Shown: positions 462 to 19,067 of the stretch, piece by piece
Layout: every line of letters starts with the position of its first letter
Position numbering within the stretch: position 1 is the first letter of the stretch
Source of the DNA: an uncultured bacterium
Lineage (GTDB): Bacteria; Vulcanimicrobiota; JAJTBE01; CAYNGH01
Reading direction: 5' to 3'
DNA length: 52,815 bases
Assembly: GCA_964396845.1 (NCBI GenBank)
Contig: CAYNGH010000005.1
Coordinates: forward strand, 1-52,815
Program-made: the position numbers and the translations under genes
Notes under the pieces: model-generated
Database searches by the model: none
Seen by the model: only the letters and a program-made list of their open reading frames with translations
Told to the model about the DNA's origin: nothing

Positions 462-505
462 AAAAACAAAAAGCCCCCGGAGATCCAAGGGCTTTTTGTT
501 TTTTT
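462..505. terminator. Intrinsic terminator (potentially bidirectional) downstream of the TMEM43 gene
   Basis: Inverted repeat AAAAACAAAAAGCCC-N12-GGGCTTTTTGTTTTT. Confidence 0.75.
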
Positions 506-544
506 CCTGTTTATTACCAGGCTTTTCTGATGGCATTCAATGCA

Positions 545-1723
545 TCAGGCAGGCTGTTCCTCGGGTTTCGGTTCGGCAGATTTGTGCTTTTTTATCAAAT
601 TGATAATACCGTAAATCGCTGCACCGGTGGCAATCAAAAGCAATATGCCCAGCAATGGCCGATATAATATCCAGGCAAGGGCAACTGTCACCGTCCAGAA
701 GGCAAAGGCAACCAGCCCTGAAATCATTCCCAGGCCAGCTCCCACAATGTTGCCTAAAAATGGCAGTACATCCGCAAGGACCTTTATGGGATTGAGAACC
801 ATGGAAAGACCGATGTACATCATAAGGAAACTGCCGATGCGAATGAGCCAGGTCATCATCTTATTCTGATCCTGGGCCTGCTTGAACATCTCCTCGGCGG
901 ACATCTGGGATGTGACCAGCCTGGAGATGGCATCCCCGGCCTTGGTCTGGTATGCCTGGAATGTATTCCCCTGCTGTTGTGCCAGAATACTGACCACAGT
1001 GGCAGGGACAATCCGGAAGGATATCCGCACATCGCCAATCTGAGGATCTGAAGGATTCGCCCCCTTGTAGAAACCGTTGCCATGAACTTGCATATCCTTG
1101 CGGGTGCCTTCGGGCAGTTTTGCCAGATCTTCATCGGTAACTCCCCTGGCCTGGTAGTTTCCGATGGACCCGATGAGAGAACTGTTTAGCTTGAAGGCCC
1201 CCAGCTCCACATCACTGGAAGTGAAAGTTTCTGAAGACCAGGGCATGGATGATGGATTTGAACGGCCATCAGGCTGTTTAAAACTGCCAGAATCGATGAG
1301 ATTTCCAGACCAGGTCTTCTCATATGTATATGTGGTCTTTCTTTCTTCGCTCCCGCCAACTTTTCTTTCAGTTTCTGTTTTCTGATTTTCCTTCCACTGA
1401 TACATTTCCACCTTGCGTTCCAGCTTGATGGCGGTATCTTCGATCTGAAACTGATCATCCCGAAGGACTTCCCGGGGTTCGGCAGTCCCCGACATGTGAA
1501 CCAGCTTGCCATCATTGGCAGGATCCACATTATCGGCACTGACAGACACCACAATCCCTGCGCCTTCCTTCAGGCTCTTGGCTGTCTTCACTGCCCGTCC
1601 CTCATTCCAAAATATCAGGGGAAACGCAACCAGAAATAGCAGGATTCCAAAAAAGATCCCCCCGAAAGCGTTTTTAATCCTGCTAAACCATGATACCTTG
1701 GTTGTTTCTGTGTAAGCTGACAT
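545..1723 (-). CDS. TMEM43/LUMA (DUF1625) family membrane protein
   Basis: 392 aa with an N-terminal TM, FWNEGRAV, GKLVH, L.RKVEMYQW.E and PQIGDVRISF motifs, and C-terminal TMs. AGGAG RBS. Confidence 0.9.
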   Translation of the reverse strand: MSAYTETTKVSWFSRIKNAFGGIFFGILLFLVAFPLIFWNEGRAVKTAKSLKEGAGIVVSVSADNVDPANDGKLVHMSGTAEPREVLRDDQFQIEDTAIKLERKVEMYQWKENQKTETERKVGGSEERKTTYTYEKTWSGNLIDSGSFKQPDGRSNPSSMPWSSETFTSSDVELGAFKLNSSLIGSIGNYQARGVTDEDLAKLPEGTRKDMQVHGNGFYKGANPSDPQIGDVRISFRIVPATVVSILAQQQGNTFQAYQTKAGDAISRLVTSQMSAEEMFKQAQDQNKMMTWLIRIGSFLMMYIGLSMVLNPIKVLADVLPFLGNIVGAGLGMISGLVAFAFWTVTVALAWILYRPLLGILLLIATGAAIYGIINLIKKHKSAEPKPEEQPA

Positions 1724-1974
1724 CTTTCAACTCCTTTGCAATTAATCGAGGCTTCCGGGCAGGCATCCCAAAAAAGAACCCCATAATACCCGCATCAGAA
1801 TCCTTACTCGATTATTCTGAATAAACTCTATTGCTCCTTTAATCCGAAACCGGGAAAATTTACAAATATACAGAATAGAGATTCTACAGATGTTAACATT
1901 TCTGAAACAGATATATATTTACAGGAAGGAACAGATGGCTTAAAATTAAAATAATAATATGAGGTCTTAATGTA

Positions 1975-3504
1975 TTGAACATTAAAAAAGTCTGCAACAA
2001 CCTGATACAGAGCAATAACATGCATAACCCGGGGCCATTCCCGGAGGATTCCAGCAACCCCGGGCCAGTGGACCTGGCAATTCTTCATGTCAATGATATA
2101 CATGGCACTCTCTCTCCATTTCCCGAACCCCGCATAAGCACTGAAACTCTCGTGGGAGGGGCTTCCAACCTGAAAAGCGCCATCGATGAAGAAAAGTCCA
2201 AAAATCCTGAGGGAACCCTGTTGCTAAATGCCGGGGATCTTATTCACGGGGCATACAAAGCCGACAAGACCCTGGGGATGGCGGCAGTTGATGCGTCGAA
2301 CCCCATGGGTTTCGATGCCATGGTTCTGGGGAATCATGAGTTCTACTGGGGAACTTATGCCCTGAGGACAATAATGAGCAAGATTAAGGCCCCGGTGGTT
2401 GCCGCCAATGTCATTGAAGGCAAAAGCCGAGAGGTGATGAAGGGTGCTCAGCCCTATGTCATTCGAAAAGTCAGGGGAGTGCCGGTGGGGATAGTGGGAA
2501 TCAACACCGACAAGGCCACCAGGCAGACACCTCCTCACCTCCTGGACGGCATAGAAGTCCTGGATGCCATCGAAACCCTCGAAGATACTATACCGAAAAT
2601 TAAAAAAGACGGGGCAGAGGTTCTGGTGATCCTTTCACATCTGGGTTTTAACGGCGATGTGAAGATTGCCCAACACTTCAAGAACGAAAGCCTGCTCATC
2701 GTCGGCGGTCACAGCCACACCCTTCTTCCCCAGGGCCACCGGGAAGGCAACAGCTTCATTGTCCAGGCGGGAAACCGGGGCATGAACCTGGGGAAGCTGG
2801 AATTTCAATACAATCGGGAGAAAAAAGAGATACTGAATCCCCGCGCCCGGCTGATCCCGATCCTTGACAGCCAGTATCCCAGGGACCCCGATATTGAAAA
2901 AATACTGAATCGCTACAGGAAGGCCCTGAAACAATCCGGAGGCAGTGATCCCATGGGTCACGCAGCCCAGGTGCTGGATTACTCCAACAACAGCGGTTCA
3001 GGCAAACTGAACCAGATCGTTGCAGATTCCATCAAGGCTACGGCAAAAACCGATGTGGCCCTGGCCAGTTGTATGGCAGTTCAGCAGGCTCATCCATCGG
3101 GGCCGGCAACCCGGCAGTCCCTGTATGATATAATGCCCTATGATGACTGGAAAATTGTCACATACAGGGTCACCGGCGCAAAGCTGAAGGAACTGGTAGA
3201 ATTCGGCCTCAGGGATGGAGTCAAGATATTTGTGCCGTCAGGCTTTCGATACGACTATGCCCCGGATCAGCCCCAGGGAAATCGGGTCACCAACATGACT
3301 GCCACTGACGGCAATCCCATCGACGATAAAAAAATATATTCCCTGGGAGTCCAGAACTATATGGCAGGACTTCCCCCCCTGAAGGACCTGCCGGGTCAGA
3401 CCCATGCCGATCCTCTACAGGATGGGTTTTTCCAGTACTTCAAGGATAACTGCCCCAGCGGGGGCTGGAAGAATGACCCCGACGCAAGGATCCAACGCGC
3501 CTGA
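1975..3504 (+). CDS. Bifunctional metallophosphoesterase / 5'-nucleotidase family protein
   Basis: HVNDIHG, AGD, GNHEF, SHLG and GGHSH metallophosphoesterase motifs plus a 5'-nucleotidase C-domain. Start may be ATG 2020. No signal peptide visible. Confidence 0.88.
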   Translation: MNIKKVCNNLIQSNNMHNPGPFPEDSSNPGPVDLAILHVNDIHGTLSPFPEPRISTETLVGGASNLKSAIDEEKSKNPEGTLLLNAGDLIHGAYKADKTLGMAAVDASNPMGFDAMVLGNHEFYWGTYALRTIMSKIKAPVVAANVIEGKSREVMKGAQPYVIRKVRGVPVGIVGINTDKATRQTPPHLLDGIEVLDAIETLEDTIPKIKKDGAEVLVILSHLGFNGDVKIAQHFKNESLLIVGGHSHTLLPQGHREGNSFIVQAGNRGMNLGKLEFQYNREKKEILNPRARLIPILDSQYPRDPDIEKILNRYRKALKQSGGSDPMGHAAQVLDYSNNSGSGKLNQIVADSIKATAKTDVALASCMAVQQAHPSGPATRQSLYDIMPYDDWKIVTYRVTGAKLKELVEFGLRDGVKIFVPSGFRYDYAPDQPQGNRVTNMTATDGNPIDDKKIYSLGVQNYMAGLPPLKDLPGQTHADPLQDGFFQYFKDNCPSGGWKNDPDARIQRA

Positions 3505-3533: not shown

Positions 3534-4961
3534 ATGGCAAATATCAATGTCCTGTCCCAACGTTATGCCAGCCCCGAGATGAATCATATCTTTTCCCCTG
3601 TCAACAGAATCATCCAGGAGCGATGTCTGTGGCTTATGATAATGGAGATACAGGGCGAGCTGGGGGTCACCGTGAATGACCGGGACATTCAACGATTCAG
3701 GTCTGCAGTGGAAAAAGTGAATTTGGACAGAATCCAGGAGATAGAAACAGTCACCAGGCACGATGTAAAGGCCCGGCTTGAAGCATTCATCGAAGAAGCC
3801 GGAGGCAGTGGCCCAGTGCATCTGGGGCTTACCAGCAGGGACATCACCGACAATGTAGAGCAGATGCTGATCCGGCAGGCCGGGAAATTAATATTGGGAA
3901 GATTCACTGCAGTATTGCAGGGGATGCTTCATCTGGCCGGCAGATACCAGAACCTGGTCATCACAGGGCGAACCCATCACCAGCCGGCCCAGCCCACAAC
4001 TCTGGGACGAAGATTTGCCCAGTGGGGAGAGGAGCTTCATTTCCACCTGCTGGAATTTGAAAACTTCCTCAACAACTATCCCCTTCGAGGAATCAAAGGC
4101 CCCCTGGGAACCTGTCACGATCAGTCTTCAATACTGGGTGGGAAAGACAAGGTTCGGCTGATGGAAAGACAGCTCAGCTCCCGGCTGGGGTTTAAAAACA
4201 TAATGGAAGCAGTGGGGCAGGTTTATTTTCGTTCCCTGGATTATAAACTGGCAGGGCATATCCAGACCCTGACAGCTCCCTGCGTGAGCATGGCCCAGTC
4301 CATCCGGCTGATGGCGGGACTGGGACTTGCCGGTGAAGGTTTCGGAGAAAATCAGACAGGCTCATCAGCAATGCCCCACAAAAAAAACTGCCGAACCAGT
4401 GAAAGGGTTTGGGGGATGGGAAACCTCATTAAAATGTTCACCACGGGCCTTGGTTCTGTTTCCGGAGGCCAGTGGGAAGAAGGAGATGTTTCCTGTTCGG
4501 TGATCCGACGGGTGATAATCCCTGATCTGTTCTATACCGCCGATGGCCTGTGCCGGGGAGTCCTGACCATTTTGAACGAATTTCAGCCCCATATCTCTGC
4601 CATCGAGGAAGAACTTCAGCATCACCTGCCCTTCCTTGCCACCACTGAAATCTTGACCATGGCGGTAAAAGCCGGAATAAACCGGGAAGAAGCCCACAGT
4701 ATCATCAGGAAAGCTGCCACCAGCCTGAATCCTTCAGATGACAGTCCCGGAAAGACCTCAGCCCTGGCCTCCCTGCTTTCCAGGAATCCGGTCTTTACAG
4801 AAAAAGAAATAACCGGGGAAATGATTGATGGAGTAATCTCTGAATCCCGACACAACATCGGTCTTGCCCTGGAACAAGTTCAAGGGGTCATCGATATGAC
4901 TGAACCTTTTCTTCTACGGCATCAGCATTCTGCCAGATACCACCCCGGCAGTATTCTGTGA
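3534..4961 (+). CDS. purB: Adenylosuccinate lyase
   Basis: RYAS, TRHDV, HLGLTSRD, GRTH.QPAQPTT and signature GSSAMPHKKN. AAGGAG RBS. Confidence 0.95.
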   Translation: MANINVLSQRYASPEMNHIFSPVNRIIQERCLWLMIMEIQGELGVTVNDRDIQRFRSAVEKVNLDRIQEIETVTRHDVKARLEAFIEEAGGSGPVHLGLTSRDITDNVEQMLIRQAGKLILGRFTAVLQGMLHLAGRYQNLVITGRTHHQPAQPTTLGRRFAQWGEELHFHLLEFENFLNNYPLRGIKGPLGTCHDQSSILGGKDKVRLMERQLSSRLGFKNIMEAVGQVYFRSLDYKLAGHIQTLTAPCVSMAQSIRLMAGLGLAGEGFGENQTGSSAMPHKKNCRTSERVWGMGNLIKMFTTGLGSVSGGQWEEGDVSCSVIRRVIIPDLFYTADGLCRGVLTILNEFQPHISAIEEELQHHLPFLATTEILTMAVKAGINREEAHSIIRKAATSLNPSDDSPGKTSALASLLSRNPVFTEKEITGEMIDGVISESRHNIGLALEQVQGVIDMTEPFLLRHQHSARYHPGSIL

Positions 4962-7273: not shown

Positions 7274-7302
7274 TTTACAACTGCACAGAGATCCCTTATA
7301 AT
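7274..7302 (+). promoter_or_regulatory. Sigma70/SigA-type promoter of the small peptide gene
   Basis: TTTACA (7274-7279), a 17 bp spacer, then TATAAT (7297-7302), in AT-rich context. Confidence 0.75.
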
Positions 7303-7351: not shown

Positions 7352-7432
7352 ATGTATCTCGACAAAGAACAGATAACCTGCGAGGAAATCCACGGAATGT
7401 ATGTAATTCCCCCGGATGACGGCGGAATCTAA
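7352..7432 (+). CDS. Small 26-aa peptide MYLDKEQITCEEIHGMYVIPPDDGGI (candidate RiPP precursor)
   Basis: Below the ORF-track cutoff. AAGGGAGG RBS lies just upstream of ATG 7352, TAA is at 7430-7432, and it is bracketed by a promoter and a terminator. Confidence 0.75.
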   Translation: MYLDKEQITCEEIHGMYVIPPDDGGI

Positions 7433-7448
7433 AACTAAAATGCAAACC

Positions 7449-7477
7449 AAAAGGCCGGCCAAGAGCCGGTCTTTTTT
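7449..7477 (+). terminator. Intrinsic terminator after the small peptide gene; may also serve the convergent esterase gene
   Basis: AAAAGGCCGGC-CAAGA-GCCGGTCTTTT hairpin ending in a T-run. Confidence 0.8.
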
Positions 7478-7607: not shown

Positions 7608-8573
7608 TTATCTTGAATGTTTTTTAAAAAACTCCCAGATGGTTCTGCATCCGTCAATTTCTCTGCTGGTTCTGCCTATTATCTTCTCAGGAAGGTATTG
7701 CTTACCGCCGGGCCATGTGTGTCCGCCTCCGATAATTTTATACAGCACCACTTCCGAGCCGTCTTTTCCCCCGGTATATTCATACTTTTCCAGGGTTGTA
7801 CCGTCGGCGGGGTCTTTATCCGGCATTCTGGTTACATCCGGCGGGAAACTGCATCCGTTGTGCTTTGCCCAAAATTCCGCCGTGGCAGGGGTTGACATAA
7901 CCCTGCCCAGCCTGATCTTTTTTATTCCAATTTCTCCTCCGCCATAAGGAACCATCGGGTCTTCAGTGCCGTTTATAATAATCACCGGCATAGGCAGTGA
8001 GGGTTTCTTTTTCGATGCAATCTCTTCCCCCATGGAGCTTATCACCGGGCCGATGGCGGAAATCTTCCGGGGAGCTTCCAGGGCCAGGCGGTATGACATC
8101 AGAGCGCCGTTGGAAGCCCCGGTGGAATAGACTCGACGAGGATCCACCCTGTGTTCCTTTACCATTCTGTCGATGAGAGCACTCAGAAAACCCACATCAT
8201 CAACACCTTCCCTGTGAGCCTTATAGCGCTGGATTCCCCGGCCATCGTTCCATCTTTTTTCCACAGCATCGGGATACACCACAATAAAGCCATCCCGGTC
8301 TGCCAACTTTTCAAAGCCCATCCTGGTGAGCCTGATCATCCCCCGGCCAGTCCCTCCGCCTCCGTGAAGCACAAGAACCATTGGAACCACGCTTTCCTCT
8401 GGTTTTCTGTCAGGTAAATATACCAGATATGTTCTATCACGGCCCTGCCATTTTATCGACCCTGGATAATGTTTTCCCGGTCTGGCAACCTGGGCCACGA
8501 CAATGATGGAAACCGCCAGGGCAAGGCTCAGCGTCAAAATTGTTACTATAAAGAAGGTTTTTCTTCGATTCAT
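7608..8573 (-). CDS. Secreted PHB-depolymerase/LpqC-like alpha/beta-hydrolase (esterase)
   Basis: Signal peptide, LHGGGG oxyanion motif, DDVGF, nucleophile GASNG, GTEDP and GGGHTWPG. Confidence 0.9.
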   Translation of the reverse strand: MNRRKTFFIVTILTLSLALAVSIIVVAQVARPGKHYPGSIKWQGRDRTYLVYLPDRKPEESVVPMVLVLHGGGGTGRGMIRLTRMGFEKLADRDGFIVVYPDAVEKRWNDGRGIQRYKAHREGVDDVGFLSALIDRMVKEHRVDPRRVYSTGASNGALMSYRLALEAPRKISAIGPVISSMGEEIASKKKPSLPMPVIIINGTEDPMVPYGGGEIGIKKIRLGRVMSTPATAEFWAKHNGCSFPPDVTRMPDKDPADGTTLEKYEYTGGKDGSEVVLYKIIGGGHTWPGGKQYLPEKIIGRTSREIDGCRTIWEFFKKHSR

Positions 8574-8886: not shown

Positions 8887-10137
8887 ATGCATATGAACAG
8901 GCTTTTTAAAAACAAGCGATTTCTTTTCTTCTGGCTGGGCCAGACCATATCAGGCATCGGCAACTGGATTAACTTTGTGGGGCTGAACCTGTATGTCCTG
9001 GAAATTTTCGGTGGCGGGGGCATTTTAGGGATGTTCCTGATGGCCCGGATGCTCCCATCGGTATTATTCGGCAGTTTCGGGGGATACCTGGCAGATCGGG
9101 CAAACCGCCGGAATGTCATGATCGCATGCGACCTGTTGCGGGCTGTTATTGTACTGGGATTTCTCATTACCCGCAATATCTACATCTTTTTCCTCCTGGG
9201 AATGCTCCTCTCAGCCCTGGACAAGGTGTTCATATCTGCCAGGGGATCTTTTCTCCCGGAAATAGTCGAACCCGATGATCTTTTAGAAGCAAACGGCATA
9301 AAGGGAATGACCACATCGGTCATCACCATCATCGGCCCTGCGGTGGGTGCAGTTTTAGTCAGCGTCTTCACATACCGGCTGATTTTCATCATCGACTCCC
9401 TGACCTTTGTTGCATCGGTGCTGTGCCTTCTCCTCATCCCCATAAGCCGGCAGACCACAGAAAAGAGGCCCCCATCCCGGGGGATTTTCCGGGAGTTTGT
9501 GGATGAATACCGCACAACCTTTATATTCCTCGGGGGACATCGGCCTCTGTTGTTCCTGATGATGCTCCGTTTCATCGATGCAGTGGGAAGCGGTGCATAC
9601 AACATCGCCCTGCCGATTTTTTCCCGCACTTTCACCAGCCTTGATCTTCCATGGGTATCCCTGGCCCTCAAGGGAGGTTCTGCATATGGATGGCTGGTGG
9701 GGATATGGGCTTTGGGGCAGTTTGCCGGGTCATATGCTGCCCGATGGGTGAGCAGAAGGTTCAGCATAACCCGGGAGAACCTGTTCAGCATCTCTATAAC
9801 CCTTATGGCCGTCGGAATGGGACTGACTTTTCAATCCTGGGGGATTTTGTGGTCCCTGGGGTTCATTTTCTTAGGCGGTGTGGGGGACGGCATATCCACG
9901 GTGGTTTTCGTGACCATGCTTATGAAGGATTCTCCCGACAAGGTCCGGGGAAAGGTATTCGGCACCATAATGTCCCTGATATTCACCGCGGTGGCAACGG
10001 GAATGCTGGCCGGCGGTTGGCTGGCGGATTATTATCCCCTGTCCAAGATAACCATGGGAGCATCCCTGGCCATTATCATCGGGGTAATCCTGGGCAGATT
10101 CTACTTTTTCTACCGGCATAAATCCCCGGCAGGTTAA
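8887..10137 (+). CDS. MFS transporter (macrolide/peptide efflux-like)
   Basis: About 12 TMs, FWLGQTIS, motif A GGYLADRANRR, and RGKVFG. Confidence 0.92.
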   Translation: MHMNRLFKNKRFLFFWLGQTISGIGNWINFVGLNLYVLEIFGGGGILGMFLMARMLPSVLFGSFGGYLADRANRRNVMIACDLLRAVIVLGFLITRNIYIFFLLGMLLSALDKVFISARGSFLPEIVEPDDLLEANGIKGMTTSVITIIGPAVGAVLVSVFTYRLIFIIDSLTFVASVLCLLLIPISRQTTEKRPPSRGIFREFVDEYRTTFIFLGGHRPLLFLMMLRFIDAVGSGAYNIALPIFSRTFTSLDLPWVSLALKGGSAYGWLVGIWALGQFAGSYAARWVSRRFSITRENLFSISITLMAVGMGLTFQSWGILWSLGFIFLGGVGDGISTVVFVTMLMKDSPDKVRGKVFGTIMSLIFTAVATGMLAGGWLADYYPLSKITMGASLAIIIGVILGRFYFFYRHKSPAG

Positions 10138-10193
10138 TGACATATGACTTGTAGAATATGGTAAACTGATATTGTTCCAAAAAGGAGTCAGAA

Positions 10194-11234
10194 ATGGAGA
10201 AATTTCCTTACAATCCAAAAGTGGCAGGCTGGGAGCTTACCCTGGCCTGCAACATGAACTGCATTCACTGCGGTTCTTCTGCAGGCAAACCCCGGCCCGA
10301 CGAACTCTCCCGGGAAGAAGGGCTGGATCTCATAGATCAGCTGATTGATTTGGGATTAAAAGTCATGACCCTGTCGGGAGGCGAACCCCTGTTGAATCCC
10401 CATCTCGAAGACTACGCCCGGCGTCTTTCCGCTGGAGGCGTTGACACATACATGATTTCCAACGGCCTCCTTCTGGAAAGAAACGCCAGGATGCTGAAGG
10501 ATGCAGGAGTCCGGCGGGTGGGAATAAGCCTTGACGGTATGGAGAAAACTCACAACTTCATCAGGAATCATCCCAATTCCTTCGCCATAGCCATGGAGGG
10601 AATCGAAGCAGCCCACAGGGCAGGAGTAATACCCGGCGCTGTCACCCACATATCCAGGGCCAATATCGAAGAGATGGAAGACATGTATCAGCTGTTTAAA
10701 AAAATTCGTCTTAATTTCTGGCAGATCCAGATAACATTCAACATGGGCAGAATGAAAGACCACAGCGACTTTGCCCTTGACCCGGCGGAGCTTCCCCGGA
10801 TTGCCAGGTTTGTTCACCAAAAACAGCAATTAAATAACGGCCCGAATGTTGTACCTGGAGATAACTTAGGTTACTATGGAAAACTGCCCATCAGGGAGAA
10901 AGCATGGAAGGGCTGTTTTGCCGGCAGGCATCTGGTGGGGATTGACGCTGACGGCGCTGTAAAAGGATGCCTTTCCCTGCCCAGGGAATTCATTGAAGGA
11001 AATATCCGGGAAGAACCCCTGAGGGTCATATGGGAAGATGTGAACCGGTTCAAGTATAACCGCTACTTCGAAACCGGAGATCTCGCCGGCAACTGCCGGG
11101 ACTGCCCCAGGGGAGATCCCTGCCGGGCCGGGTGCGTGGTGACTGCGTATTCCGCCACAGGGAACCGATTTGACAACCCGTACTGCCTTTACCGGGTTGA
11201 AAAAATGGACTGCGCCGGAGGAGGATGTTCTTGA
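10194..11234 (+). CDS. Radical SAM/SPASM peptide maturase (splicease-like family)
   Basis: CNMNCIHC, GGEP, SLDG, and SPASM CFAG...GC...CRDC...C.AGC...C. The WELTLAC..GS.AG, WQIQIT..MG and PGDNLGYYG segments recall GDL/nif11-class-3 maturases. Confidence 0.9.
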   Translation: MEKFPYNPKVAGWELTLACNMNCIHCGSSAGKPRPDELSREEGLDLIDQLIDLGLKVMTLSGGEPLLNPHLEDYARRLSAGGVDTYMISNGLLLERNARMLKDAGVRRVGISLDGMEKTHNFIRNHPNSFAIAMEGIEAAHRAGVIPGAVTHISRANIEEMEDMYQLFKKIRLNFWQIQITFNMGRMKDHSDFALDPAELPRIARFVHQKQQLNNGPNVVPGDNLGYYGKLPIREKAWKGCFAGRHLVGIDADGAVKGCLSLPREFIEGNIREEPLRVIWEDVNRFKYNRYFETGDLAGNCRDCPRGDPCRAGCVVTAYSATGNRFDNPYCLYRVEKMDCAGGGCS

Positions 11235-12556
11235 TCATCAATGCTCTGAAAAAAGCCTCCCTCAGGTATCATTCCCGCCTTTCAAGCATCAAGGGAGTCC
11301 CCTGCGCCCTGCTGGAGCTGAAAAACGCTCCCACCAGCTCCATGCTTCTATGCTTCCGGGACGGGGTGGCATACGAAGATGAAGATGAATGGGGAATCTC
11401 ACATTTCATCGAGCATATACTTTTCCGGGGCAACAAGGCATACCCTTCCCTCTACCAGATCAGTCACCGGGCCGAAAGCCTGGGAGGACGTATCTCGGCC
11501 TTTTCAACCCGGGACGGGGTATATTTCTGGATGAAGGCTCCGCCGGGGATGGAAAAAGAGATGACAGACCTGCTGGGAAATCTCCTGACCACCCCGGAGC
11601 TGAGGGATGAGTTCATCGAGAAAGAAAGACAGATAATTATCCAGGAACGGCAACGGGAGATAAACAACCCGTCGCTGTTCACCTCGCTTCTATTGGAAGA
11701 AACCCTCCTCTCACCCCGGCCCATCTGCCGGCATCCCATCGGCAGTACACAGGTGATTGACGCTCTGGATTCAGCAAGCCTCAAAAACCGCCTTGACAAA
11801 GTTTATCACCGGGATAATCTCATGGTATGCGTAGCTGGCTCAATTTCCGAAGACATCACAAAACATATTGAAGAACTTATCGGGAAGTTTCCCGGGGGCA
11901 GTCCACCCCGGCAGGCAGAATTCGAAGTGTTGCCCGATTACTCGTCCCACCGGTATTTTCTCCGGGAGTCCCCTCACAAAAGCCAGGTTTTCCTTTCCCT
12001 GGGCTGGCCCATCACCCTTGATGATGACCGAGAAATATATCCCCTGCGGGTCCTCAATTCACTTCTGGGCGCGGGATATACCAGCTCTTTCAACCGTGTC
12101 CTGCGGGAAGAAAAAAACCTGACATACCTTTGCACCACAGGGCTGAACCTTTATGGAAACCATGGCGTTTACAAGGTGAACATGGCCCTTGCTGATTCAA
12201 ATCTAAAGCCTGCCCTTGAACTTGTCCACGAGATAATCGAAGACACAGGGGAAGGTAAAATCACTGGTGAACAAATGGATCTGGCCCGGATAAAGCACGC
12301 CTCTCACCTGATCTTCAAGATGGAAGACAGCCTGGAGGCATCCCGGATTCTCTCCCAGCGCCTGATGCGGGAAGGAAACCTGTTTTGCCTTCAAGATTAT
12401 ATTAAAACCATCACAGAGGTAACCGCAGAGGATGTGTCGGGAATCTGCCGGAAGAAACTTCCCCATGATAAATGCCGGGTAGTCATCCAGACCGGTTCCT
12501 CCAAGATCCAGAATCACGAATCCATGGGGATTGCTCTGCCGGTCCGAACCATATAA
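11225..12556 (+). CDS. M16 family zinc peptidase
   Basis: Inverted zincin HFIEH, EKERQIIIQE, and C-domain LREEKNLTY. Overlaps the rSAM stop by 10 nt. Confidence 0.92.
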   Translation: MFLIINALKKASLRYHSRLSSIKGVPCALLELKNAPTSSMLLCFRDGVAYEDEDEWGISHFIEHILFRGNKAYPSLYQISHRAESLGGRISAFSTRDGVYFWMKAPPGMEKEMTDLLGNLLTTPELRDEFIEKERQIIIQERQREINNPSLFTSLLLEETLLSPRPICRHPIGSTQVIDALDSASLKNRLDKVYHRDNLMVCVAGSISEDITKHIEELIGKFPGGSPPRQAEFEVLPDYSSHRYFLRESPHKSQVFLSLGWPITLDDDREIYPLRVLNSLLGAGYTSSFNRVLREEKNLTYLCTTGLNLYGNHGVYKVNMALADSNLKPALELVHEIIEDTGEGKITGEQMDLARIKHASHLIFKMEDSLEASRILSQRLMREGNLFCLQDYIKTITEVTAEDVSGICRKKLPHDKCRVVIQTGSSKIQNHESMGIALPVRTI

Positions 12557-15500
12557 AACAAAACTTCCTTTACCGGACAAGAGGTCATTTCTTCCACAGC
12601 TTTTTTATATGTATATGCCTGGGCTGCATATTTATTCTTTAATATCTCCTGATGGGCGGTATCGGCTATATCGGTTTTGTAGTCAACAATGACATACTCA
12701 TCTCCCTCCCGAATCAGAAGATCGATTACTCCCCTGACTGTCATATCTCCCCTATTCAGGATGAAGGGGTATTCCCGGTAATATTCACCGGCAGAAAGAG
12801 CACGGCTGACGAGGCCAGATTTTAATGTCCTCTCCACCATGATGCGGACATCCTGAGTATTCTCCTCTACTCCTTCAGCAGTCACCGCCATATCCAGAAT
12901 ATTTTTCCATCCTTCATTTCCCGTGAGATCAATATGTTCCATGACCCGGTGAAAAGCCCGGCCTGTACGTTTCTGAACCTTGCGATAAGCGGAATCCGCA
13001 GTCGAGCTATCTTCTTCATCGGAGGTATAGCTGGAAATTTTCATATGACGGCTTCCCTTATCATTGGCGGATTTTTTCTCATTTTCAAGTTTCTCCAACA
13101 TTTCTTTTGTCAGAATACCTGCCGGAGGCTCATCCTGACTGGGAATCGTCGGGGGGACATCCAGGGGAATGCAAGGGGACACTTCCCCGGCAGAAACTTC
13201 AGCAATATGAAACAATTCCCGGTCAGAACTGTTTTCATCTGTAATGGCTGGTCCCAGAAGCTCCTGGTAATGGGCAAATTTGGGATTGGCCCGGCGATCC
13301 TTCGATAGGCCGTATTTAAAATATGCTGGAATAATCAGAGTGTTCTTTGCCCGGGTTGCCGCCACATAGAGAATCCTGATGTTTTCAGCCTCGGCTTTCT
13401 TTTTTTCCAATTCATCCTGTTCACTGTGCTTTCGGGTATCAAAACCATGCATGGAGGCTTCCAGTATCCCGGTTTTTGTGTCGATGAGAAGGTTCTCTTT
13501 TTTGGGTTTATCAGTTGCACAAAGGGCCGCCAGTATCACCACGGGAAATTCCAGCCCCTTGGCCTTGTGAATAGTCAGAAGGCTCACCGATTCCCGGGAT
13601 GCTTCCTCCGCCGGAGCATCGGGTTCTGCCCGCTCATCGGCAATGGCATCCTGAATATAACCGATAAACCGCCGGAGGCTCCCACCGGGACGGTTTTCGA
13701 ACTCCCGGGCCATGGCCAGCAGTTTCATTATATTTGCTCTGGCCCGGCCATGTTTTTGAAGCAGGCTGTAAAAATTAAGCAGGCCTGTTTCTGTTAGCAT
13801 CTTTTCCATCAGGCCCCCAAGATTCATCCGATTTCTTTCCCTGTGAAGGAGGCGCAGGGTTTCATATGCCTCTTTGCCAGGATGATTTCCCTCAAAGGGA
13901 GCTAAATAACACAAGGGGACTTCCTCAAGTTTCATCTCCAGCAGTTCCTGATCTGACAGGTTGAACATGGGGCCTTTCAAAACCGCAACAAGGCTCAACT
14001 GATCCCGGGGGTTGTCGATGGCCTTGAGGCAATTCAAAATGTCCCGGATCTCCTGGCGGAAATAAAACAGCTTTCCCCCATAAAGCCGGGATGGGATCTC
14101 CTCCCGGAGCAGAGCTTCTTCATAAAGGGGGATATAGCGGTATTTGGGAAACAGAATGGCAATATCCGACGGTTTGAGGGATCTTCCCAAAGATGAAGGA
14201 TGATATGATGTGTCCACAAGCATCCGACGGATCTGCCAGGCTATGGCTTCTGCTTCTTGAGCACATGTTCCCAGGGTGTCACGGTTCTCCTCCGGCAGGG
14301 TTTCCTCCACAAGGAGAATCAGCGGATAGTCCCCCTGAATCATGCCCCAGGGACTCAGAGGTATGTAATCAGGCTGATAATCACCATCAACAGGAGGGGT
14401 GATTGTCCGGGAAAAGGACTGATTAACCCATTGAATAATTTTTTCGTGACATCGGAAATTTACAGTAATAGCCAGAAAACCATCATCCCCCAGGATTTCC
14501 TTTACTTTCTGATATATTTCAATGTCTGCCCTGCGGAAGCGGTATATGGACTGCTTCGGGTCCCCCACGAAAAACAGCTTTCCCTTCATGGTGCGAACCT
14601 TTTCCCAGGATGATTCAAACTCGTCAAGTTCTTCTGCCAGGTAAAACACCAATCTGACCTGCAGGGGGTCCGTGTCCTGAAACTCATCCACCAGAATCCG
14701 GGAAAATTCAGCCTTGTAGCGTTCCCGGACAGCCCGGTTCTTCTCCAGCAAATCCACTGCCCGAATCAGCAGGTCATCATTGCTCAAAACCGCCAGCCGG
14801 CGTTTTTCCCTTTCCACCTCATCCATGAAGCCTGTCATCCGGGAAACTATACCGTCAAACAGTATCCGTCCAAAGGAATGACGGGCGGATTCTATTTCGT
14901 CTGCCAGCTGTTGAACCATCTCTTTCTTCTGTTCTTTAAATCCACCCCAGTTTTTCTCAACACCGGCTTTCATCCCTGTGACATTCCAGCGGACAATCAG
15001 TCCGGGGCAGGCCTCCGGCGGGGCCAGAAGAATCCGGTTCAGGTAAGCCCGGTATTTGCGGATATAATCCCATCCCTTATCGTCGGGATCACTGCAGTGT
15101 TGATTTGCCAGCTCTTCAAGGGCTTCCACCTGCTTTTCAAGACAATCCAGAACTGCACTGCCATCAAGGGGAGATTCCTTCGTCGGATTCTGCTTCACCA
15201 AATTTCGATTCTCATACAGCAGGTCAAAGAGTTCCCTGTAATCGCTGTTGGCGAGGCCCGATACATATCCCAACCGGATGGGACTGTCGTTATCTTTTAA
15301 CTGTTCCTTGATCCAGGTTTCCCACAGGGGATCGATTATCTCTTTTTCCTCAATATCGTCGATAACAGTAAAAGCCGGGTCAATCCCTGCTTCGAAGGGT
15401 GCGCCGGAGAGAATCTGCCGGGCAAAGGAATGGATGGTGCTGATGCGGTTGTTTTCAAATTCTGCCAGGGCAATTCCGGCATTGTTGACTTCCATGGTCA

Positions 15501-15768
15501 GTTTTTGGTTTTCTTCAACAAACTTTTCCAGCTCCTCTCCCAGCCGGGATACCATCTCCAGAGTCGCCTTCTCAGTGAAGGTGATGGCTGCGATTCTTTC
15601 GATGGGGACCCCCTGCCGGCAGATAAGCTCCATCATTCGCGCCACAAGGGTTGTAGTTTTGCCGGTGCCGGCCCCTGCTTCCAGAATAAGATTCTGATCA
15701 AGGCGACTCCTGGCATCCTGTCGGGCCTCAGCATCCTGAAGTATTATCGGCAAGCTCTTTTCTGTCAC
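12514..15768 (-). CDS. addA: AddA/RecB-like UvrD helicase-nuclease
   Basis: AGAGTGKT, TIHSF, DEFQDT, VGDPKQSIYRFR, TIHKAKGLEF, YVAATRA, and nuclease GVIDL..VDYKT. Confidence 0.9.
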   Translation of the reverse strand: MTEKSLPIILQDAEARQDARSRLDQNLILEAGAGTGKTTTLVARMMELICRQGVPIERIAAITFTEKATLEMVSRLGEELEKFVEENQKLTMEVNNAGIALAEFENNRISTIHSFARQILSGAPFEAGIDPAFTVIDDIEEKEIIDPLWETWIKEQLKDNDSPIRLGYVSGLANSDYRELFDLLYENRNLVKQNPTKESPLDGSAVLDCLEKQVEALEELANQHCSDPDDKGWDYIRKYRAYLNRILLAPPEACPGLIVRWNVTGMKAGVEKNWGGFKEQKKEMVQQLADEIESARHSFGRILFDGIVSRMTGFMDEVEREKRRLAVLSNDDLLIRAVDLLEKNRAVRERYKAEFSRILVDEFQDTDPLQVRLVFYLAEELDEFESSWEKVRTMKGKLFFVGDPKQSIYRFRRADIEIYQKVKEILGDDGFLAITVNFRCHEKIIQWVNQSFSRTITPPVDGDYQPDYIPLSPWGMIQGDYPLILLVEETLPEENRDTLGTCAQEAEAIAWQIRRMLVDTSYHPSSLGRSLKPSDIAILFPKYRYIPLYEEALLREEIPSRLYGGKLFYFRQEIRDILNCLKAIDNPRDQLSLVAVLKGPMFNLSDQELLEMKLEEVPLCYLAPFEGNHPGKEAYETLRLLHRERNRMNLGGLMEKMLTETGLLNFYSLLQKHGRARANIMKLLAMAREFENRPGGSLRRFIGYIQDAIADERAEPDAPAEEASRESVSLLTIHKAKGLEFPVVILAALCATDKPKKENLLIDTKTGILEASMHGFDTRKHSEQDELEKKKAEAENIRILYVAATRAKNTLIIPAYFKYGLSKDRRANPKFAHYQELLGPAITDENSSDRELFHIAEVSAGEVSPCIPLDVPPTIPSQDEPPAGILTKEMLEKLENEKKSANDKGSRHMKISSYTSDEEDSSTADSAYRKVQKRTGRAFHRVMEHIDLTGNEGWKNILDMAVTAEGVEENTQDVRIMVERTLKSGLVSRALSAGEYYREYPFILNRGDMTVRGVIDLLIREGDEYVIVDYKTDIADTAHQEILKNKYAAQAYTYKKAVEEMTSCPVKEVLFYMVRTGRAIPMDS

Positions 15769-18700
15769 TGAATCTCCTTGAGTTCTTCAAAGTCCTGCAG
15801 CCTGCTGTTGCCAACTTTCAACTGGTATATGCCGGCAATATCTCTGGGACAGATGGGACGGTAATCACAATATATGCAGTTTTCCCCGTCAAAGGATCCC
15901 TCCCGGCCCAGTCTTCTCTTGCCGGGATATGGGGGGAAAAACCCTTCCCCGGCTCCATTAACTACAGACACAAGAAGAGAGGTCAGATCATTCTTACGTT
16001 CCTCAACCAGGTAGCCTTCAAAACCGATTTTTTTAAAACCTCCCCTGGGTGTGGCAAAGTAATAAAGCGCCCGAGCCTGATGGAGGCTTTCCATCCCGTC
16101 GAGAAGCCCGTTGAGAGATAACAGGTAAAGGGGAAGCTGAAGCTGAGTACCCCCGGCAAAACTGTCAGAACGGTATTTGTCATACCTGCCGGTCTTGTAA
16201 TCGATAATCTCCCAGCTGTCTTCAAGGGGGCTTGCATCCACCCGGTCGATCCTGCCCCGCAGTTTGATGAATGTATCCCGGCCCAGTTTTATCTCGGCAG
16301 CTGGCAGGGGACCTCCGCCAACAGGATCCCTCATCCCAAAGGATAGTTCAAAGTCCCTGGGAAGAAGCTCCCTTTGCCGGGATTCTTCCAGTATGAATTG
16401 TTCCAGCCCGCGACTGATCTCAACGGTTTTTTCAAACCAGGAAGACTCATCCCCCACAATCCCGGCCTTCTCCACCTGCTCAAATTCATCCCTGGCGATT
16501 CTGCAGATCTCTACGAGGTACTCCTCTGTCTTGTGGGGTTGGAGGGGAAGAAGTCCCCTCTGTTTTAAGTGCCGGTAAAATCGGTAATAAATTGCATGAT
16601 AAAGTTTTCCCCGATCCAGGGGAGAGATCCTTCGAATCTCCTCAGGAGCGGAAATGGGAGAAATTTCCATGATCCGTTGGAGGAAAAACCGGTATGGACA
16701 GGCATGATACTCTTCAAAACCGCTGGCGGAGGCAGGATTAAATATCCCCCGGACTATCCTCTGAAGCCCCGACAGGGTATCACTGCCGGTTACCAGTCCG
16801 TCACTGCTGGTGAGGCTGGAATATACCCTCCGACGACGGAATTCATCCAGAGCCCGGCAGAAACCCGGATCCAGTGATGCCACATCGGCAAGAATCCCTC
16901 GGCTGATGACATCATCGGATTGTTGTCGAAGAGTATGAAGATACAATTCTGGAGGATTCAAAAAAAACAGTTCCCGGCCCTGTTCACAGGGAACCTTGTC
17001 GCCATCGGCATAAACAAATCCCGGCACCTGGCAGAGATTCCCATGATAAACACTTTTTCCTGTAAGAATGGAGCCAATTTTCAGCAGATACCTGGATGGC
17101 ATCCCTTCTCCTCCCGGCATGAAACCTTCCCTGGGATATGAGAAATGAATCCCCCGCCGGGCAGTGCCCAGAAGAAGGGCTGTCAGATAATCTTCCTGCT
17201 CCTGAAGTTGCCTCCGTAGAAGAAGGGTTCCACCCCAGTGATAAACACCATTGAAAATTTCCCTCTCCCGGTCGGACATAAGAGGATTGTCCCGGTGAGG
17301 TGCCGGATACTGCCCAGAAAGCATCCCCGCCACTATGAGATGATCCCCGGTCATTCCCACGGGAACCACATTGATGTGAACATTTACACATCCAGCCATA
17401 TAACTGCCACAGGACACAGGAACCCTGGATACTAATTCCCGGAGAAAACCGGAAAAGGTGTCATAATCCACCGGGGACTCCAGGCAATCCAGGCGGGCCA
17501 GGCTCTCCACCACTGCCACCAGGGATTCCAGGTGACTGTCATCGTCAATCAACTGGCGGATGATTGACGCAAAAGTATCGGAAAAGTACTTCCATTTGCC
17601 CTTTCTGTGGATGTTTGACATGATTGCCGACAGATTCTCCACAACTTCAAGAAGATTTTTTAAATCCTCCACGGTTTCCCGGTGGGATCCCTGCCTCAGG
17701 GAATCCGGTGTGGAATCCGGGGTTTTTTCATAATGTCTTATCAGGGAATTCAGGCAGTTCCTCCAGCTGTAGAGCCCCTTTCTGACTCCGGCCTCCCGGG
17801 AGAGCTGATCCCACCGGGCAGGGGCCGGAATCCTGTCCGGAGGCATAAGACTGTTATATTTTATTGTGCCATCGCATAAAAACTCCATCACTTCAAATCG
17901 GGGAAGATCCAGTGCCACAAGATTAAGAAGCAGAGCCAGGGTCGCTCCGGCGGGAGTTGTGGAAAGAGGTCTGCCCTGGTGCAGGCAGTATGGGATATTC
18001 AAAAAGTCAAAGGTATCGGTGAGAAGATTCTGATACACTTCCCGGTCCCGAAGAACCACCGTTATCTCATGGTAAGGAGTCCCCCGGGAGGCCAGCTGGA
18101 AAACCCTCCGGGCACACTCCAAGGTTTCGGTACGGGTATCGGGGCAGGATGTTATGGTCAGGGAACCGTCACCGGCACAATTACATCCTTGAGAAGAATC
18201 GCCAAGGAAACTATCCCTGACATGCTCAAGAGCTGTCTTTGCCGGGGAGGGATCTTTTCTTTCCTCCCTGGTTTCATAACCGATCCTTCGGAAAAATTCC
18301 ATCACATGATCACTGGCAGGGCTACCATGAATATATGGAAAAAACACAGCACCCGAGGCATATTTTGACAATTCCTGAATCAGCTTCTGCTGGGTCTGAT
18401 CCAGATTGAAAAATCCGTAAAATAACAGATCCGATGCCCTGGAAGCCCTGAAAAAATTACCTGCAGACTCAGCCCCCCCTTTGATAATGTCCACCGCATC
18501 GTAAAAATTTTGCCCGAAGCAATCCGGGTATGCGTCTAACATACTAAAAACCGTGGTCATGCGATCCCGGTCAAAGGCAGGGCCGGCTTCCCTTTCCATG
18601 AGCCGGGACAGGTCTTCGATATCCTGAAACCCTTCGAAACCTCCCTGTCGGAAATCTTTCAAAAGGGACATAAACACCTGCAACAGTCCCCGGCTGTCCA

Positions 18701-19067
18701 TGAATGGCTCCATGGGGGAACCAGGCTTTAATGCTGTTCTAATGGCTCTGCGGGCTGCCAGTTCTTCTCCCATGGGGGGAATCTCCCGAAGTCCCCGGGA
18801 ATAAAGCTCCGCCTCGCACAACATCAGGGCCAGCTGTTTAAGATTCATAACTTTTATCCCCCCGCCGGTCAGCAGGTGGGACAGCTTCCGGCCAAGCCCT
18901 GTGGAAGGGACCGCCACCACCAGTGGTTTTAAGGGATTATCCCTCTTCACCCGGCGCACTTCCCGCAGAAGAGCCTTCTCCAGAGTTGGAAAATCCCTGG
19001 CATAGTAAAGTACCCGGCTGGTGGCCACATTTTCATCAAAGGGAAGATACAGCTGTTCCATGCTCAA
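15765..19067 (-). CDS. addB: AddB-like inactive-helicase / PD-(D/E)XK nuclease with Fe-S staple
   Basis: Degenerate helicase N-half, CPYRFF, RGRIDRVD, IIDYKTG, QLPLY and CIYCDYRPIC. 4-nt overlap with addA. Confidence 0.85.
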   Translation of the reverse strand: MSMEQLYLPFDENVATSRVLYYARDFPTLEKALLREVRRVKRDNPLKPLVVAVPSTGLGRKLSHLLTGGGIKVMNLKQLALMLCEAELYSRGLREIPPMGEELAARRAIRTALKPGSPMEPFMDSRGLLQVFMSLLKDFRQGGFEGFQDIEDLSRLMEREAGPAFDRDRMTTVFSMLDAYPDCFGQNFYDAVDIIKGGAESAGNFFRASRASDLLFYGFFNLDQTQQKLIQELSKYASGAVFFPYIHGSPASDHVMEFFRRIGYETREERKDPSPAKTALEHVRDSFLGDSSQGCNCAGDGSLTITSCPDTRTETLECARRVFQLASRGTPYHEITVVLRDREVYQNLLTDTFDFLNIPYCLHQGRPLSTTPAGATLALLLNLVALDLPRFEVMEFLCDGTIKYNSLMPPDRIPAPARWDQLSREAGVRKGLYSWRNCLNSLIRHYEKTPDSTPDSLRQGSHRETVEDLKNLLEVVENLSAIMSNIHRKGKWKYFSDTFASIIRQLIDDDSHLESLVAVVESLARLDCLESPVDYDTFSGFLRELVSRVPVSCGSYMAGCVNVHINVVPVGMTGDHLIVAGMLSGQYPAPHRDNPLMSDREREIFNGVYHWGGTLLLRRQLQEQEDYLTALLLGTARRGIHFSYPREGFMPGGEGMPSRYLLKIGSILTGKSVYHGNLCQVPGFVYADGDKVPCEQGRELFFLNPPELYLHTLRQQSDDVISRGILADVASLDPGFCRALDEFRRRRVYSSLTSSDGLVTGSDTLSGLQRIVRGIFNPASASGFEEYHACPYRFFLQRIMEISPISAPEEIRRISPLDRGKLYHAIYYRFYRHLKQRGLLPLQPHKTEEYLVEICRIARDEFEQVEKAGIVGDESSWFEKTVEISRGLEQFILEESRQRELLPRDFELSFGMRDPVGGGPLPAAEIKLGRDTFIKLRGRIDRVDASPLEDSWEIIDYKTGRYDKYRSDSFAGGTQLQLPLYLLSLNGLLDGMESLHQARALYYFATPRGGFKKIGFEGYLVEERKNDLTSLLVSVVNGAGEGFFPPYPGKRRLGREGSFDGENCIYCDYRPICPRDIAGIYQLKVGNSRLQDFEELKEIQ

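Follow-up and report, generated by a model that had tools for sequence, protein, structure and literature searches.

A conserved radical SAM/SPASM, M16 peptidase and MFS pump cassette with a short Tyr-containing precursor as a candidate spliceotide-type pathway in an uncultured Vulcanimicrobiota bacterium

We analyzed a stretch of 52,815 nucleotides (hereafter, the window; contig CAYNGH010000005.1 of assembly GCA_964396845.1) from an uncultured bacterium of the phylum Vulcanimicrobiota and identified a gene cassette that very probably produces a RiPP (a peptide made on ribosomes and then modified post-translationally) from a 26-residue precursor, through a radical S-adenosylmethionine (SAM) step centred on Tyr17. 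By sequence comparison, the peptide, a major facilitator superfamily (MFS) pump, a radical SAM/SPASM enzyme (rSAM), and an M16 peptidase form one conserved unit, usually together with a vicinal oxygen chelate (VOC) protein and a short-chain dehydrogenase/reductase (SDR). The best reading of these data is an apparently undescribed variant of the spliceotide type, distinguished by a noncanonical Tyr site and by dedicated genes for tailoring, proteolysis, and export. The complete proposal, in which the window genes are the core of a conserved spliceotide-type cassette for splicing at Tyr17, tailoring, trimming, and export, stands in our view at an even chance; for the reaction itself, we infer tyramine-type splicing with a likelihood that is even at best.

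As described in the cited parts of the literature (PMC11414181, PMC11626197, PMC10533398, PMC9811515, PMC10849128), spliceases belong to the radical SAM/SPASM enzymes; at X-Tyr-Gly they cut out a tyramine equivalent (C8H9NO) and link the carbonyl carbons on either side, which gives an alpha-keto-beta-amino residue. The same parts describe spliceotide products as protease inhibitors and the ketoamide as configurationally unstable through enolisation. The window genes of interest are:

7352..7432, forward strand: precursor peptide gene, 26 aa, MYLDKEQITCEEIHGMYVIPPDDGGI, with N-terminal MYLD and core E-I-H-G-M-Y17-V-I-P-P
8887..10137, forward strand: MFS transporter gene, 416 aa, DHA3/EntS-like, presumed exporter of the product
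10194..11234, forward strand: radical SAM/SPASM peptide maturase gene, 346 aa, in a distinct clade inside a splicease-like radiation
11225..12556, forward strand: M16B zinc peptidase gene, 443 aa, presumed precursor-trimming protease

The last three genes are co-directional, with a gap of 56 nt between the MFS and rSAM genes and an overlap of 10 nt between the rSAM and M16 genes, and the open reading frame (ORF) list reproduced the exact coordinates that a model had given for them from the DNA letters and an ORF list (the original prediction). The MFS protein matched Pfam MFS_1 (125.5 bits) and MFS_3 (73.4 bits) above the gathering scores, and its closest curated model was the DHA3-type TIGR00900 (190.6 bits; cut-off 319.6). 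The rSAM protein matched Radical_SAM (PF04055, 98.9 bits) and SPASM (PF13186, 32.7 bits), both above the gathering scores; its CX3CX2C motif (C19, C23, and C26) begins at residue 19, nearly at the protein start, and is joined by 7 SPASM cysteines (C241, C259, C301, C304, C310, C314, and C331), all of them invariant in 2 orthologue alignments. The window enzyme is thus a member of the radical SAM/SPASM subfamily by both motif and Pfam domains. The peptidase matched Peptidase_M16 (72.0 bits) and M16_C (84.6 bits) above the gathering scores, its active site H60-F-I-E63-H64 (HxxEH) and distal E141 were invariant in 11 of 11 orthologues, and its nearest solved structure was 3hdi, a homodimeric bacterial M16B "processing protease" (194 bits). 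With both domains, HxxEH, and the distal Glu zinc ligand present, the sequence identifies it as an active-type M16B subunit. Pfam assigned no further domain to any of the 3 proteins, and hence no RiPP recognition element (RRE) or PqqD domain, and the ORF list held no precursor gene between the 3 core genes; the original prediction had likewise placed neither a precursor nor an RRE/PqqD gene within the operon.

The arrangement recurs widely among relatives. A scan of one genome per species returned 283 rSAM relatives and a metagenome scan 403, of which the best 80 each were taken. At 21 genome loci (L022-L041 and L043), the rSAM was at least 48% identical to the window enzyme, and 20 of these had MFS and/or M16 genes beside it; at L023, the rSAM stood alone beside a kinase and a transposase-like ORF. 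All 16 metagenome loci with an rSAM of at least 49% identity had MFS, M16, or peptide genes, contig ends permitting. By contrast, no M16 or cassette-type MFS gene lay beside the rSAM at the 59 genome and 64 metagenome loci of lower identity; at one of them, L094, an opposite-strand sequence approximately 4.3 kb away matched the MFS at 25% identity. MFS orthologues (33-57% identity) adjoined the rSAM in most cassette loci, and M16 follows the rSAM gene in relatives as well. The MFS-rSAM-M16 arrangement exceeds chance by far. The gene order that had been proposed as a RiPP system does recur elsewhere, and its conservation across several phylum labels fits the RiPP logic put forward for it.

Records carrying the cassette were labelled Vulcanimicrobiota/Eremiobacterota (including UBP9 and "Xenobia"), Elusimicrobiota, and Chloroflexota, along with 2 "Burkholderiales" and some "Bacillota" metagenome-assembled genomes (MAGs). 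Cassette-type rSAMs were identified in 12 of 41 genomes of the source phylum. The cassette loci as a whole made up about 19 lineages at less than 80% rSAM identity, some loci being identical or near-duplicate sequences from 2 collections (L024 and L105, L031 and L106, L029 and L117). In a collection of 5.8 billion proteins, rSAMs of at least 46% identity formed at least 65-70 clusters (90% identity) among the best 120 of 3118 matches, and the names among those listed were "radical SAM protein," "hypothetical protein," and "radical SAM protein with 4Fe4S-binding SPASM domain." Part of the window stretch itself occurs in 5 sludge-metagenome DNA runs.

Searching related loci by tblastn, we found homologues of the 26-residue peptide directly upstream of MFS-rSAM-M16 in most of them, with 2 or 3 tandem copies in L009, L113, and L115, and with GGAGG-type ribosome-binding sites ahead of nearly all. 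The peptides range from 22 to 35 residues. In an alignment of 20 distinct sequences, H14, Y17, and P21 were invariant and E12 and D22 nearly so, the N-termini read MYLD, MFLD, or MFWNE, position 12 was nearly always acidic (Asp in some peptides), and Cys10 was not conserved. The residue after Tyr17 was V, I, T, or M, or F in 2 further L113 peptides, and was Gly in 0 of 22 distinct peptides; the noncanonical Tyr-Val site singled out in the original prediction belongs to a family in which Gly never follows this Tyr. Among 12 MYLD-type precursor genes, differences fell mostly on the third codon position (614, against 310 and 198 on the other 2) and the His, Tyr, and Asp codons varied synonymously, a pattern by which the precursor ORF behaves as coding sequence. 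The 26-mer matched no Pfam and no NCBIfam family (0 families). A DNA search with degenerate codons for E-I-H-[GA]-x-Y hit the source genome 6 times, once at the window peptide. No recognisable precursor was found at L023, L026 (within 900 nt upstream), L039, L041, or L114, and the last 3 of these loci form one subclade. Directly upstream of MFS in L041, in the precursor's place, lies a ThiS/MoaD-like ORF of 66 aa ending in Gly-Gly (4564-4764, forward strand), which has no counterpart in other cassette loci.

In the window, the precursor gene lies 1.45 kb upstream of the cassette, beyond an esterase gene on the opposite strand, and has GGGAGG 7-12 nt ahead of its ATG. Its surroundings include:

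7274..7302, forward strand: sigma-70-like promoter, TTTACA-17 nt-TATAAT, ahead of the precursor gene
7455..7469, strand unassigned: GC-rich hairpin CCGGCCAAGAGCCGG followed by a forward-strand T-run, within …ccggccaagagccggtctttttt…; likely terminator of the precursor transcript
7608..8573, reverse strand: gene for a secreted-looking esterase, with a signal peptide and a Pfam Esterase_PHB match (42 bits), between the precursor and MFS genes

The promoter-like site is a consensus match only, with 11 of 12 positions, and ranked top between 7100 and 12800, a region in which sigma-70-like sites were not enriched (4 observed, 7.2 expected). The hairpin was listed on the reverse strand by the terminator scan, the forward-strand T-run being taken from the sequence, and it possibly terminates in both directions. 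Among the ORFs of the other 37 cassette loci, the esterase gene had no cluster partner. We rejected it as a cassette member on this ground; its presence looks like the result of an insertion or rearrangement by which the cassette was split.

We predicted the complex of the rSAM and the peptide from an rSAM alignment, a peptide alignment, SAM, and three 4Fe-4S clusters. The interaction prediction score from aligned errors (ipSAE) was 0.86 (0.81, 0.86, and 0.90 in 3 runs), whereas the controls gave 0.01, 0.03, and 0.00; the partner's predicted local distance difference test (pLDDT) was 75-81, and contacts agreed between runs by at least 85%. Of 80 solved complexes in the calibration, 58 pass the mark, as do 2 of 110 mismatched pairs; the calibration set was made up of proteins of 30 aa or more, with alignments other than those used here. 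The PDB copy contained no splicease complex and its best match to the rSAM was PqqE (6c8v, 82.7 bits), so the score is unlikely to reflect recall of a solved structure. Enzyme contacts are predicted for peptide residues 1-6 and 8-24. Residues 1-6 lie against rSAM residues 5, 290-292, and 311, and His14 lies against Q177, Q179, G222, and D223, within the WQIQ and GDNxGY motifs that the original prediction had picked out; the interface also includes S61 and G62, which adjoin the SAM-binding GGE motif. Together, the upstream homologues, the invariant His14 and Tyr17, and a predicted complex that beats its controls make the earlier suggestion of the 7352..7432 peptide as the rSAM substrate a good one.

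To place the enzyme, we compared it with curated models and with its relatives. The best NCBIfam model was TIGR04103 (239.4 bits; cut-off 725), followed by TIGR03913 (214.9 bits over nearly the full length; cut-off 591.75), with AhbD (172.5), TIGR04133 (170.3), NirJ2 (144.3), MftC (117.1), and PqqE (83.9) far below their cut-offs. The resemblance to the TIGR04103 and TIGR03913 maturases noted earlier is thus borne out by their rank as the top 2 models, while membership in either family is not, both scores being far too low. Enzymes 38-46% identical to the window rSAM score 197-254 bits on the 2 models, the same as the window enzyme, and paralogues beside X-Tyr-Gly precursors reach only 220-254 bits on TIGR04103, which indicates that this model is narrow. 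A non-peptide function, for instance in heme or d1-heme synthesis as for AhbD and NirJ or in making another cofactor, with the MFS and M16 neighbours incidental, would account for the AhbD, NirJ2, and other tetrapyrrole models among the matches. We regard it as scarcely credible: the AhbD/NirJ-type scores (172.5, 144.3, 125.5, 119.3, and 110.8) compare with cut-offs of 500-650 and rank below both peptide-maturase models, the synteny with a small peptide is conserved, the predicted peptide complex passes its controls, and the conserved cassette neighbours include no tetrapyrrole genes. The heme-type rSAM that the original prediction had named as grounds for dropping its proposal was accordingly not what we found.

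All cassette rSAMs formed one clade with 100% support both in a FastTree phylogeny of 149 sequences and in an IQ-TREE phylogeny (LG+G4, SH-aLRT) of 45 representatives. In the latter, the clade fell within an 87%-supported group that held every YG-associated lineage, and its sister (88%) included Methanothrix and L139. The trees were built without any experimentally proven splicease, and lineages were judged by their X-Tyr-Gly neighbour genes. A "YLxD…xYG" module was identified at 49 of 97 sister-clade loci, against 2 of 97 reversed-sequence controls; no cassette locus (0 of 30) and no basal-clade locus (0 of 19) had it. In Zixibacteria and Ignavibacteria loci, the YG neighbours were 30-45-residue peptides with the pattern MIYLIDP…C…C…P[LM]YG[VI]P (L042, L046-L052, L055-L062, L064-L069, L071, L073, L075, L079-L080, L082, L084, L086-L087, L089, L091-L093, L096-L098, and L100); those of Methanothrix were multi-module proteins (…LYLTDWQ…VKYGI…MYLTDWQ…FRYGM…), and others were Pro/Gly-rich proteins with repeated xYG. 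The Cys-rich MIYLIDP peptides lie approximately 1.5-2 kb upstream of the splicease-like rSAM, often with a second, distant rSAM (24-34% identity) in between. No NCBIfam family matched 4 short X-Tyr-Gly peptides, an MYG-repeat protein, and 1 L113 peptide. The source genome has a pair of this kind on another contig, C55 (locus L013):

1378/1501-2676, forward strand: paralogue rSAM, 42% identical to the window rSAM
778-1275, reverse strand: LMYGVFPP-repeat protein, 165 aa, Pro-rich, with 4 sites, ending in PMYGVFA; no NCBIfam family match

These 2 divergent genes look like a canonical X-Tyr-Gly spliceotide pair. In the window peptide, MYLD is followed 15 residues on by GMYVIPP, where the paralogue's repeat, LMYGVFPP, has Gly. 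Comparison shows the window peptide, at the level of sequence, to keep the Y-L-x-D and downstream x-Tyr layout of YG modules with the Gly lost, and likewise indicates that the cassette rSAM descends from a radiation of enzymes encoded beside X-Tyr-Gly precursors. The description of the enzyme as splicease-like, made before any database search, agrees with this placement and with the 2 top models. In the basal clade of 19 rSAMs, which lacks YG neighbours, a conserved protein of approximately 100 aa ends just upstream of the rSAM (L124 3108-3407, L129 3106-3405, L141 3099-3398, L128 3028-3390, L164 2831-3139, L180 3096-3401, and L148 1025-1345). It has …MYLVIID… at its N-terminus and …ADD…GR…RAGDYIAL… at its C-terminus and may be akin to the "GDL-motif peptide" partners of TIGR03913.

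Clustering of flanking ORFs revealed 2 more conserved genes after M16, which the original prediction had not included in the cassette: a VOC protein (approximately 125 aa; Pfam Glyoxalase) and a classical SDR (approximately 260 aa; Pfam adh_short). Their nearest NCBIfam models, methylmalonyl-CoA epimerase and glyoxalase I for the VOC and FabG and 3-hydroxybutyrate-dehydrogenase types for the SDR, scored below specific cut-offs. Counting the 26 partly redundant cassette loci with a complete M16 gene and at least 500 nt downstream, VOC was present in 21 and SDR in 17, sometimes divergently upstream; the 5 loci without VOC were the window, L022, L036, L039, and L104. VOC (E <= 1e-15) was also identified in 10 of 12 related genomes with a cassette rSAM and 5 of 29 without, a co-occurrence that is not a statistical test because the 41 genomes are related to each other. 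The source genome carries both genes on contig C252 (L185), which measures 3104 nt in all:

2112-2495, reverse strand: VOC gene, intact, orthologue of cassette-linked copies
1331-2125, reverse strand: SDR gene, intact, orthologue of cassette-linked copies
1-1173, reverse strand: TldD-family metalloprotease gene, following the VOC-SDR pair

The C252 VOC and SDR are 51% and 47% identical to the cassette-linked copies of L029. TldD proteases process some peptides. We also observed that the window M16 has its best NCBIfam matches in YfmF (67 bits) and YfmH (45 bits) of elongation factor P (EF-P) 5-aminopentanol modification (cut-offs 285 and 250) and that a cassette-linked SDR (L024 8732-9517) scores 166 bits on the model of YmfI, an EF-P 5-aminopentanone reductase (cut-off 238); from these sub-cut-off matches, the pairing of M16 and SDR appears to recur in an unrelated protein-modification system.

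The redox centre of mycofactocin is an alpha-keto amide served by SDR-family dehydrogenases, and a cassette-linked, conserved SDR raises the question of whether the product is a peptide-derived redox cofactor or shuttle, similar to mycofactocin or pyrroloquinoline quinone (PQQ), in which an alpha-ketoamide is cycled by the SDR. The very short precursor and the rSAM/SPASM plus peptidase pairing would suit both parallels, and the SDR matches include the mycofactocin-coupled model TIGR03971 at 162-182 bits. That model's cut-off of 300 is not reached, however, and the SDR does better on generic models of FabG and 3-hydroxybutyrate dehydrogenase; the rSAM gets 117 bits on the MftC model (cut-off 265). 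The presence of a dedicated MFS efflux pump points to export, and the patchy and apparently horizontal distribution across phyla is typical of secondary metabolites and less so of a cofactor. We therefore consider a cofactor role very unlikely.

The layout in the source genome bears on whether this particular copy is active. The precursor is cut off by the inserted esterase gene and the tailoring genes lie elsewhere, and such a dispersed layout was confined to this order, occurring in the window, at L022/G003, and also in G002, whose lone rSAM sits beside a transposase-like ORF. The copy could accordingly be a decaying remnant from which no product is made, which would be compatible with any reading of the family. 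We hold this to be improbable given that all 4 window genes are intact with conserved active-site residues, that a promoter-like site, a ribosome-binding site, and a terminator of its own accompany the precursor gene, and that the VOC and SDR genes on C252 are intact.

Whether the enzyme splices is the point on which the evidence divides. Of the 115 rSAM positions at least 90% conserved in the cassette clade, 60 have the same residue (at least 90%) in YG-associated clades, so the catalytic scaffold looks retained. Eight positions are specific to the clade (P5, H68, E95, H152, K239, R245, Y291, and V316). The predicted interface of 49 residues takes in 6 of these, where approximately 1.1 would be expected by proportion. 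Several observations weigh against splicing as we propose it. The X-Tyr-Gly motif that marks a splice site is absent, with Gly missing in 22 of 22 distinct peptides, and the mining and characterisation of published spliceases relied on YG sites. We know of no role in splicing for the invariant His three residues before Tyr. The substitutions clustered in the predicted pocket could mean changed chemistry, beyond changed recognition. The deep branching order of the trees is moderately supported (82-88%) and not firmly resolved, and the roles proposed for VOC and SDR are read from family chemistry alone, with NCBIfam scores below specific cut-offs. Finally, with the precursor behind an unrelated esterase and the VOC-SDR pair on another contig, coordinated function in this genome is an assumption.

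The same cassette and precursor could thus serve a switched reaction, a Tyr17-centred crosslink or other rearrangement in place of tyramine excision, such as a His14-Tyr17 bond, a PQQ-style link between Tyr and an acidic residue at 11 or 12, or one at C-beta, with VOC and SDR tailoring the product. rSAM/SPASM enzymes form many Tyr, Trp, and His crosslinks. The loss of Gly after Tyr in all 22 peptides, the invariant His14 and nearly always acidic position 12, the 6 of 8 clade-specific residues that line the predicted pocket, and the combination of M16, a short peptide, and rSAM/SPASM, which is also found in PQQ synthesis (PqqA/E/F), would all suit it, and we take it to be possible, if the less probable course. 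Its difficulties are the scaffold retained at 60 of 115 positions, a core that resembles a splice tag minus its Gly (GMYVIPP compared with LMYGVFPP), and scores of 83.9 bits on the PqqE model (TIGR02109, cut-off 381) and 24.6 bits on the PqqF model (TIGR02110, cut-off 320). Asp at position 12 in some peptides argues against a fixed Glu-Tyr link, and a keto-reductase with a glyoxalase-family protein would suit a ketoamide more than a C-C crosslink. Gly loss, His at -3, and the His, Lys, Arg, and Tyr substitutions of the pocket would mark a new His-x-x-Tyr chemistry if the clade had abandoned splicing altogether for a new rSAM reaction on this core, be it a crosslink or a backbone rearrangement of another kind, followed up by a dedicated VOC enzyme and reductase in a new RiPP class that has protease and exporter of its own; this we judge rather unlikely.

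Under the favoured proposal of tyramine-type splicing, the rSAM would bind the peptide through MYLD and the E-I-H-G-M-Y-V-I core and act on Tyr17, excising a tyramine equivalent (C8H9NO) at Met16-Tyr17-Val18 and connecting the carbonyl carbons of Met16 and Tyr17, which would leave an alpha-keto-beta-amino (ketoamide) residue. VOC and SDR could then handle the enolisable 1,2-dicarbonyl, for example by epimerisation together with reduction to an alpha-hydroxy-beta-amino acid, or VOC may serve in self-protection. The M16B peptidase would trim the peptide, and the EntS-like MFS pump would export a small product, plausibly a protease inhibitor.

A cassette of rSAM, M16, and MFS of this kind was not described in the literature searched, although the splicease type scheme of Scott et al. 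(Chem 2022) may list the clade, and the same literature, with Scott et al. 2022 outside it, yielded no report of a splicease whose target Tyr lacks a following Gly. According to the part of a 2022 review cited here, natural spliceotide end products from native hosts were still unfound (PMC9811515). The present pathway is minimal and self-contained, with a precursor of 22-35 residues, 1 rSAM, 1 protease, 1 pump, and often a reductase and VOC, so its mature product could be worked out. It offers a test of whether the Gly of X-Tyr-Gly is truly needed. Splicing at Tyr-Val or Tyr-Ile, if true, would widen the set of sequences for engineering ketoamides into peptides and proteins, and the linked reductase would point to ribosomal alpha-hydroxy-beta-amino acids; were the reaction a different one, both the rSAM reaction and the RiPP class would be new. 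The cassette would also be the first named biosynthetic trait for little-known uncultured lineages such as UBP9/Xenobia-type Vulcanimicrobiota and Elusimicrobiota.

Some cassette loci and the window itself showed further features. A multi-pass membrane protein of 376 aa is encoded between the rSAM and M16 genes at L037 (7007-8137) and also at L110, and a protein of 454-524 aa, with beta-propeller-like repeats by eye, between the tandem precursors and MFS at L115 (775-2139) and L112 (639-2213). The rSAM match is in 2 pieces at L040 (6001-7097), L043 (1324-2360), and L116 (2735-3734), which may reflect frameshift, insertion, or assembly error, and L040 has a second, distant rSAM between its M16 and VOC genes. 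In the window, 2 very large reverse-strand ORFs converge on the cassette, one of 1084 aa (12514-15768) with a GAGTGKT Walker A motif and, by eye, a UvrD/AddA-type helicase-nuclease look, and one of 1100 aa (15765-19067).

Several known systems share parts of this plan. Subtilosin sactipeptide clusters combine the rSAM/SPASM enzyme AlbA with the M16 pair AlbE/AlbF and export, and the window cassette has the same association of an rSAM/SPASM maturase, M16-family processing, and export. AlbA-type enzymes, however, have an N-terminal RRE and form Cys thioethers, whereas the window system lacks an RRE and Cys10 of its precursor is unconserved; in place of the AlbE/AlbF pair, it has a single M16B subunit. 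The product of mycofactocin biosynthesis (MftA/MftC) is an alpha-keto amide, and that pathway shares with the cassette a short precursor, a Tyr near Val, and linked SDR enzymes. They differ in the rSAM (117.1 bits on the MftC model TIGR03962, against 265), in the position of the Tyr, internal in the window peptide and C-terminal in mycofactocin, and in gene content, the window cassette having an MFS exporter and no equivalents of MftB, MftD, MftE, or MftF.

PQQ synthesis (PqqA/PqqE/PqqF) also starts from a very short peptide in which acidic and Tyr residues are conserved, and it uses an M16 peptidase and an rSAM/SPASM enzyme without a fused RRE, PqqE being by sequence the nearest solved structure to the window enzyme. 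Apart from the low PqqE and PqqF scores given above, the spacing between the acidic residue and Tyr differs, Asp is allowed at the acidic position, and the window cassette includes an exporter. PqqB, PqqC, and PqqD were not among the conserved cassette neighbours, with the rest of the genome not searched for pqqB and pqqC. The TIGR03913 maturases are close in that their model ranks second and aligns nearly full length, although its profile is approximately 130 residues longer and the window precursor family has no Y-X10-GDL motif.

Among the spliceotides, we compared the PlpX/PlpY pathway (type I), the binary RhaX, RcsX, and RasX pathways (type II), and further types. The window family departs from them in the residue after Tyr (V, I, T, M, or F and never Gly), the invariant His at -3, the short precursor of 22-35 residues, a TIGR04103 score far below the cut-off, and the dedicated M16B and MFS genes, mostly with VOC and SDR. 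The likenesses lie in the rSAM/SPASM enzyme, for which the PlpX-type TIGR04103 is the best curated model and whose neighbouring lineages are associated with X-Tyr-Gly, and in the overall architecture. According to the cited portion of PMC11414181, the Y (PqqD-like) protein is missing from hundreds of non-cyanobacterial spliceotide pathways, indeed from all of them, and the window cassette similarly has no Y/RRE protein, flanking-ORF clustering having found no further conserved small gene among cassette neighbours. As in the binary type, which also has no Y/PqqD-like protein, the precursor N-terminus is predicted to contact the enzyme. The predicted core lies inside the barrel, as it does in published splicease AlphaFold models, so far as these are described in the cited parts of the papers. 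Functional splice tags given there include GGPIRPGYGLPI and GAVAAGYGVVFPG, with endings …GYGLPI and …GYGVVFPG (PMC11414181, PMC11626197, PMC10533398, PMC9811515), and the window core follows the same order of a hydrophobic residue, Tyr, and then hydrophobic residues and Pro.

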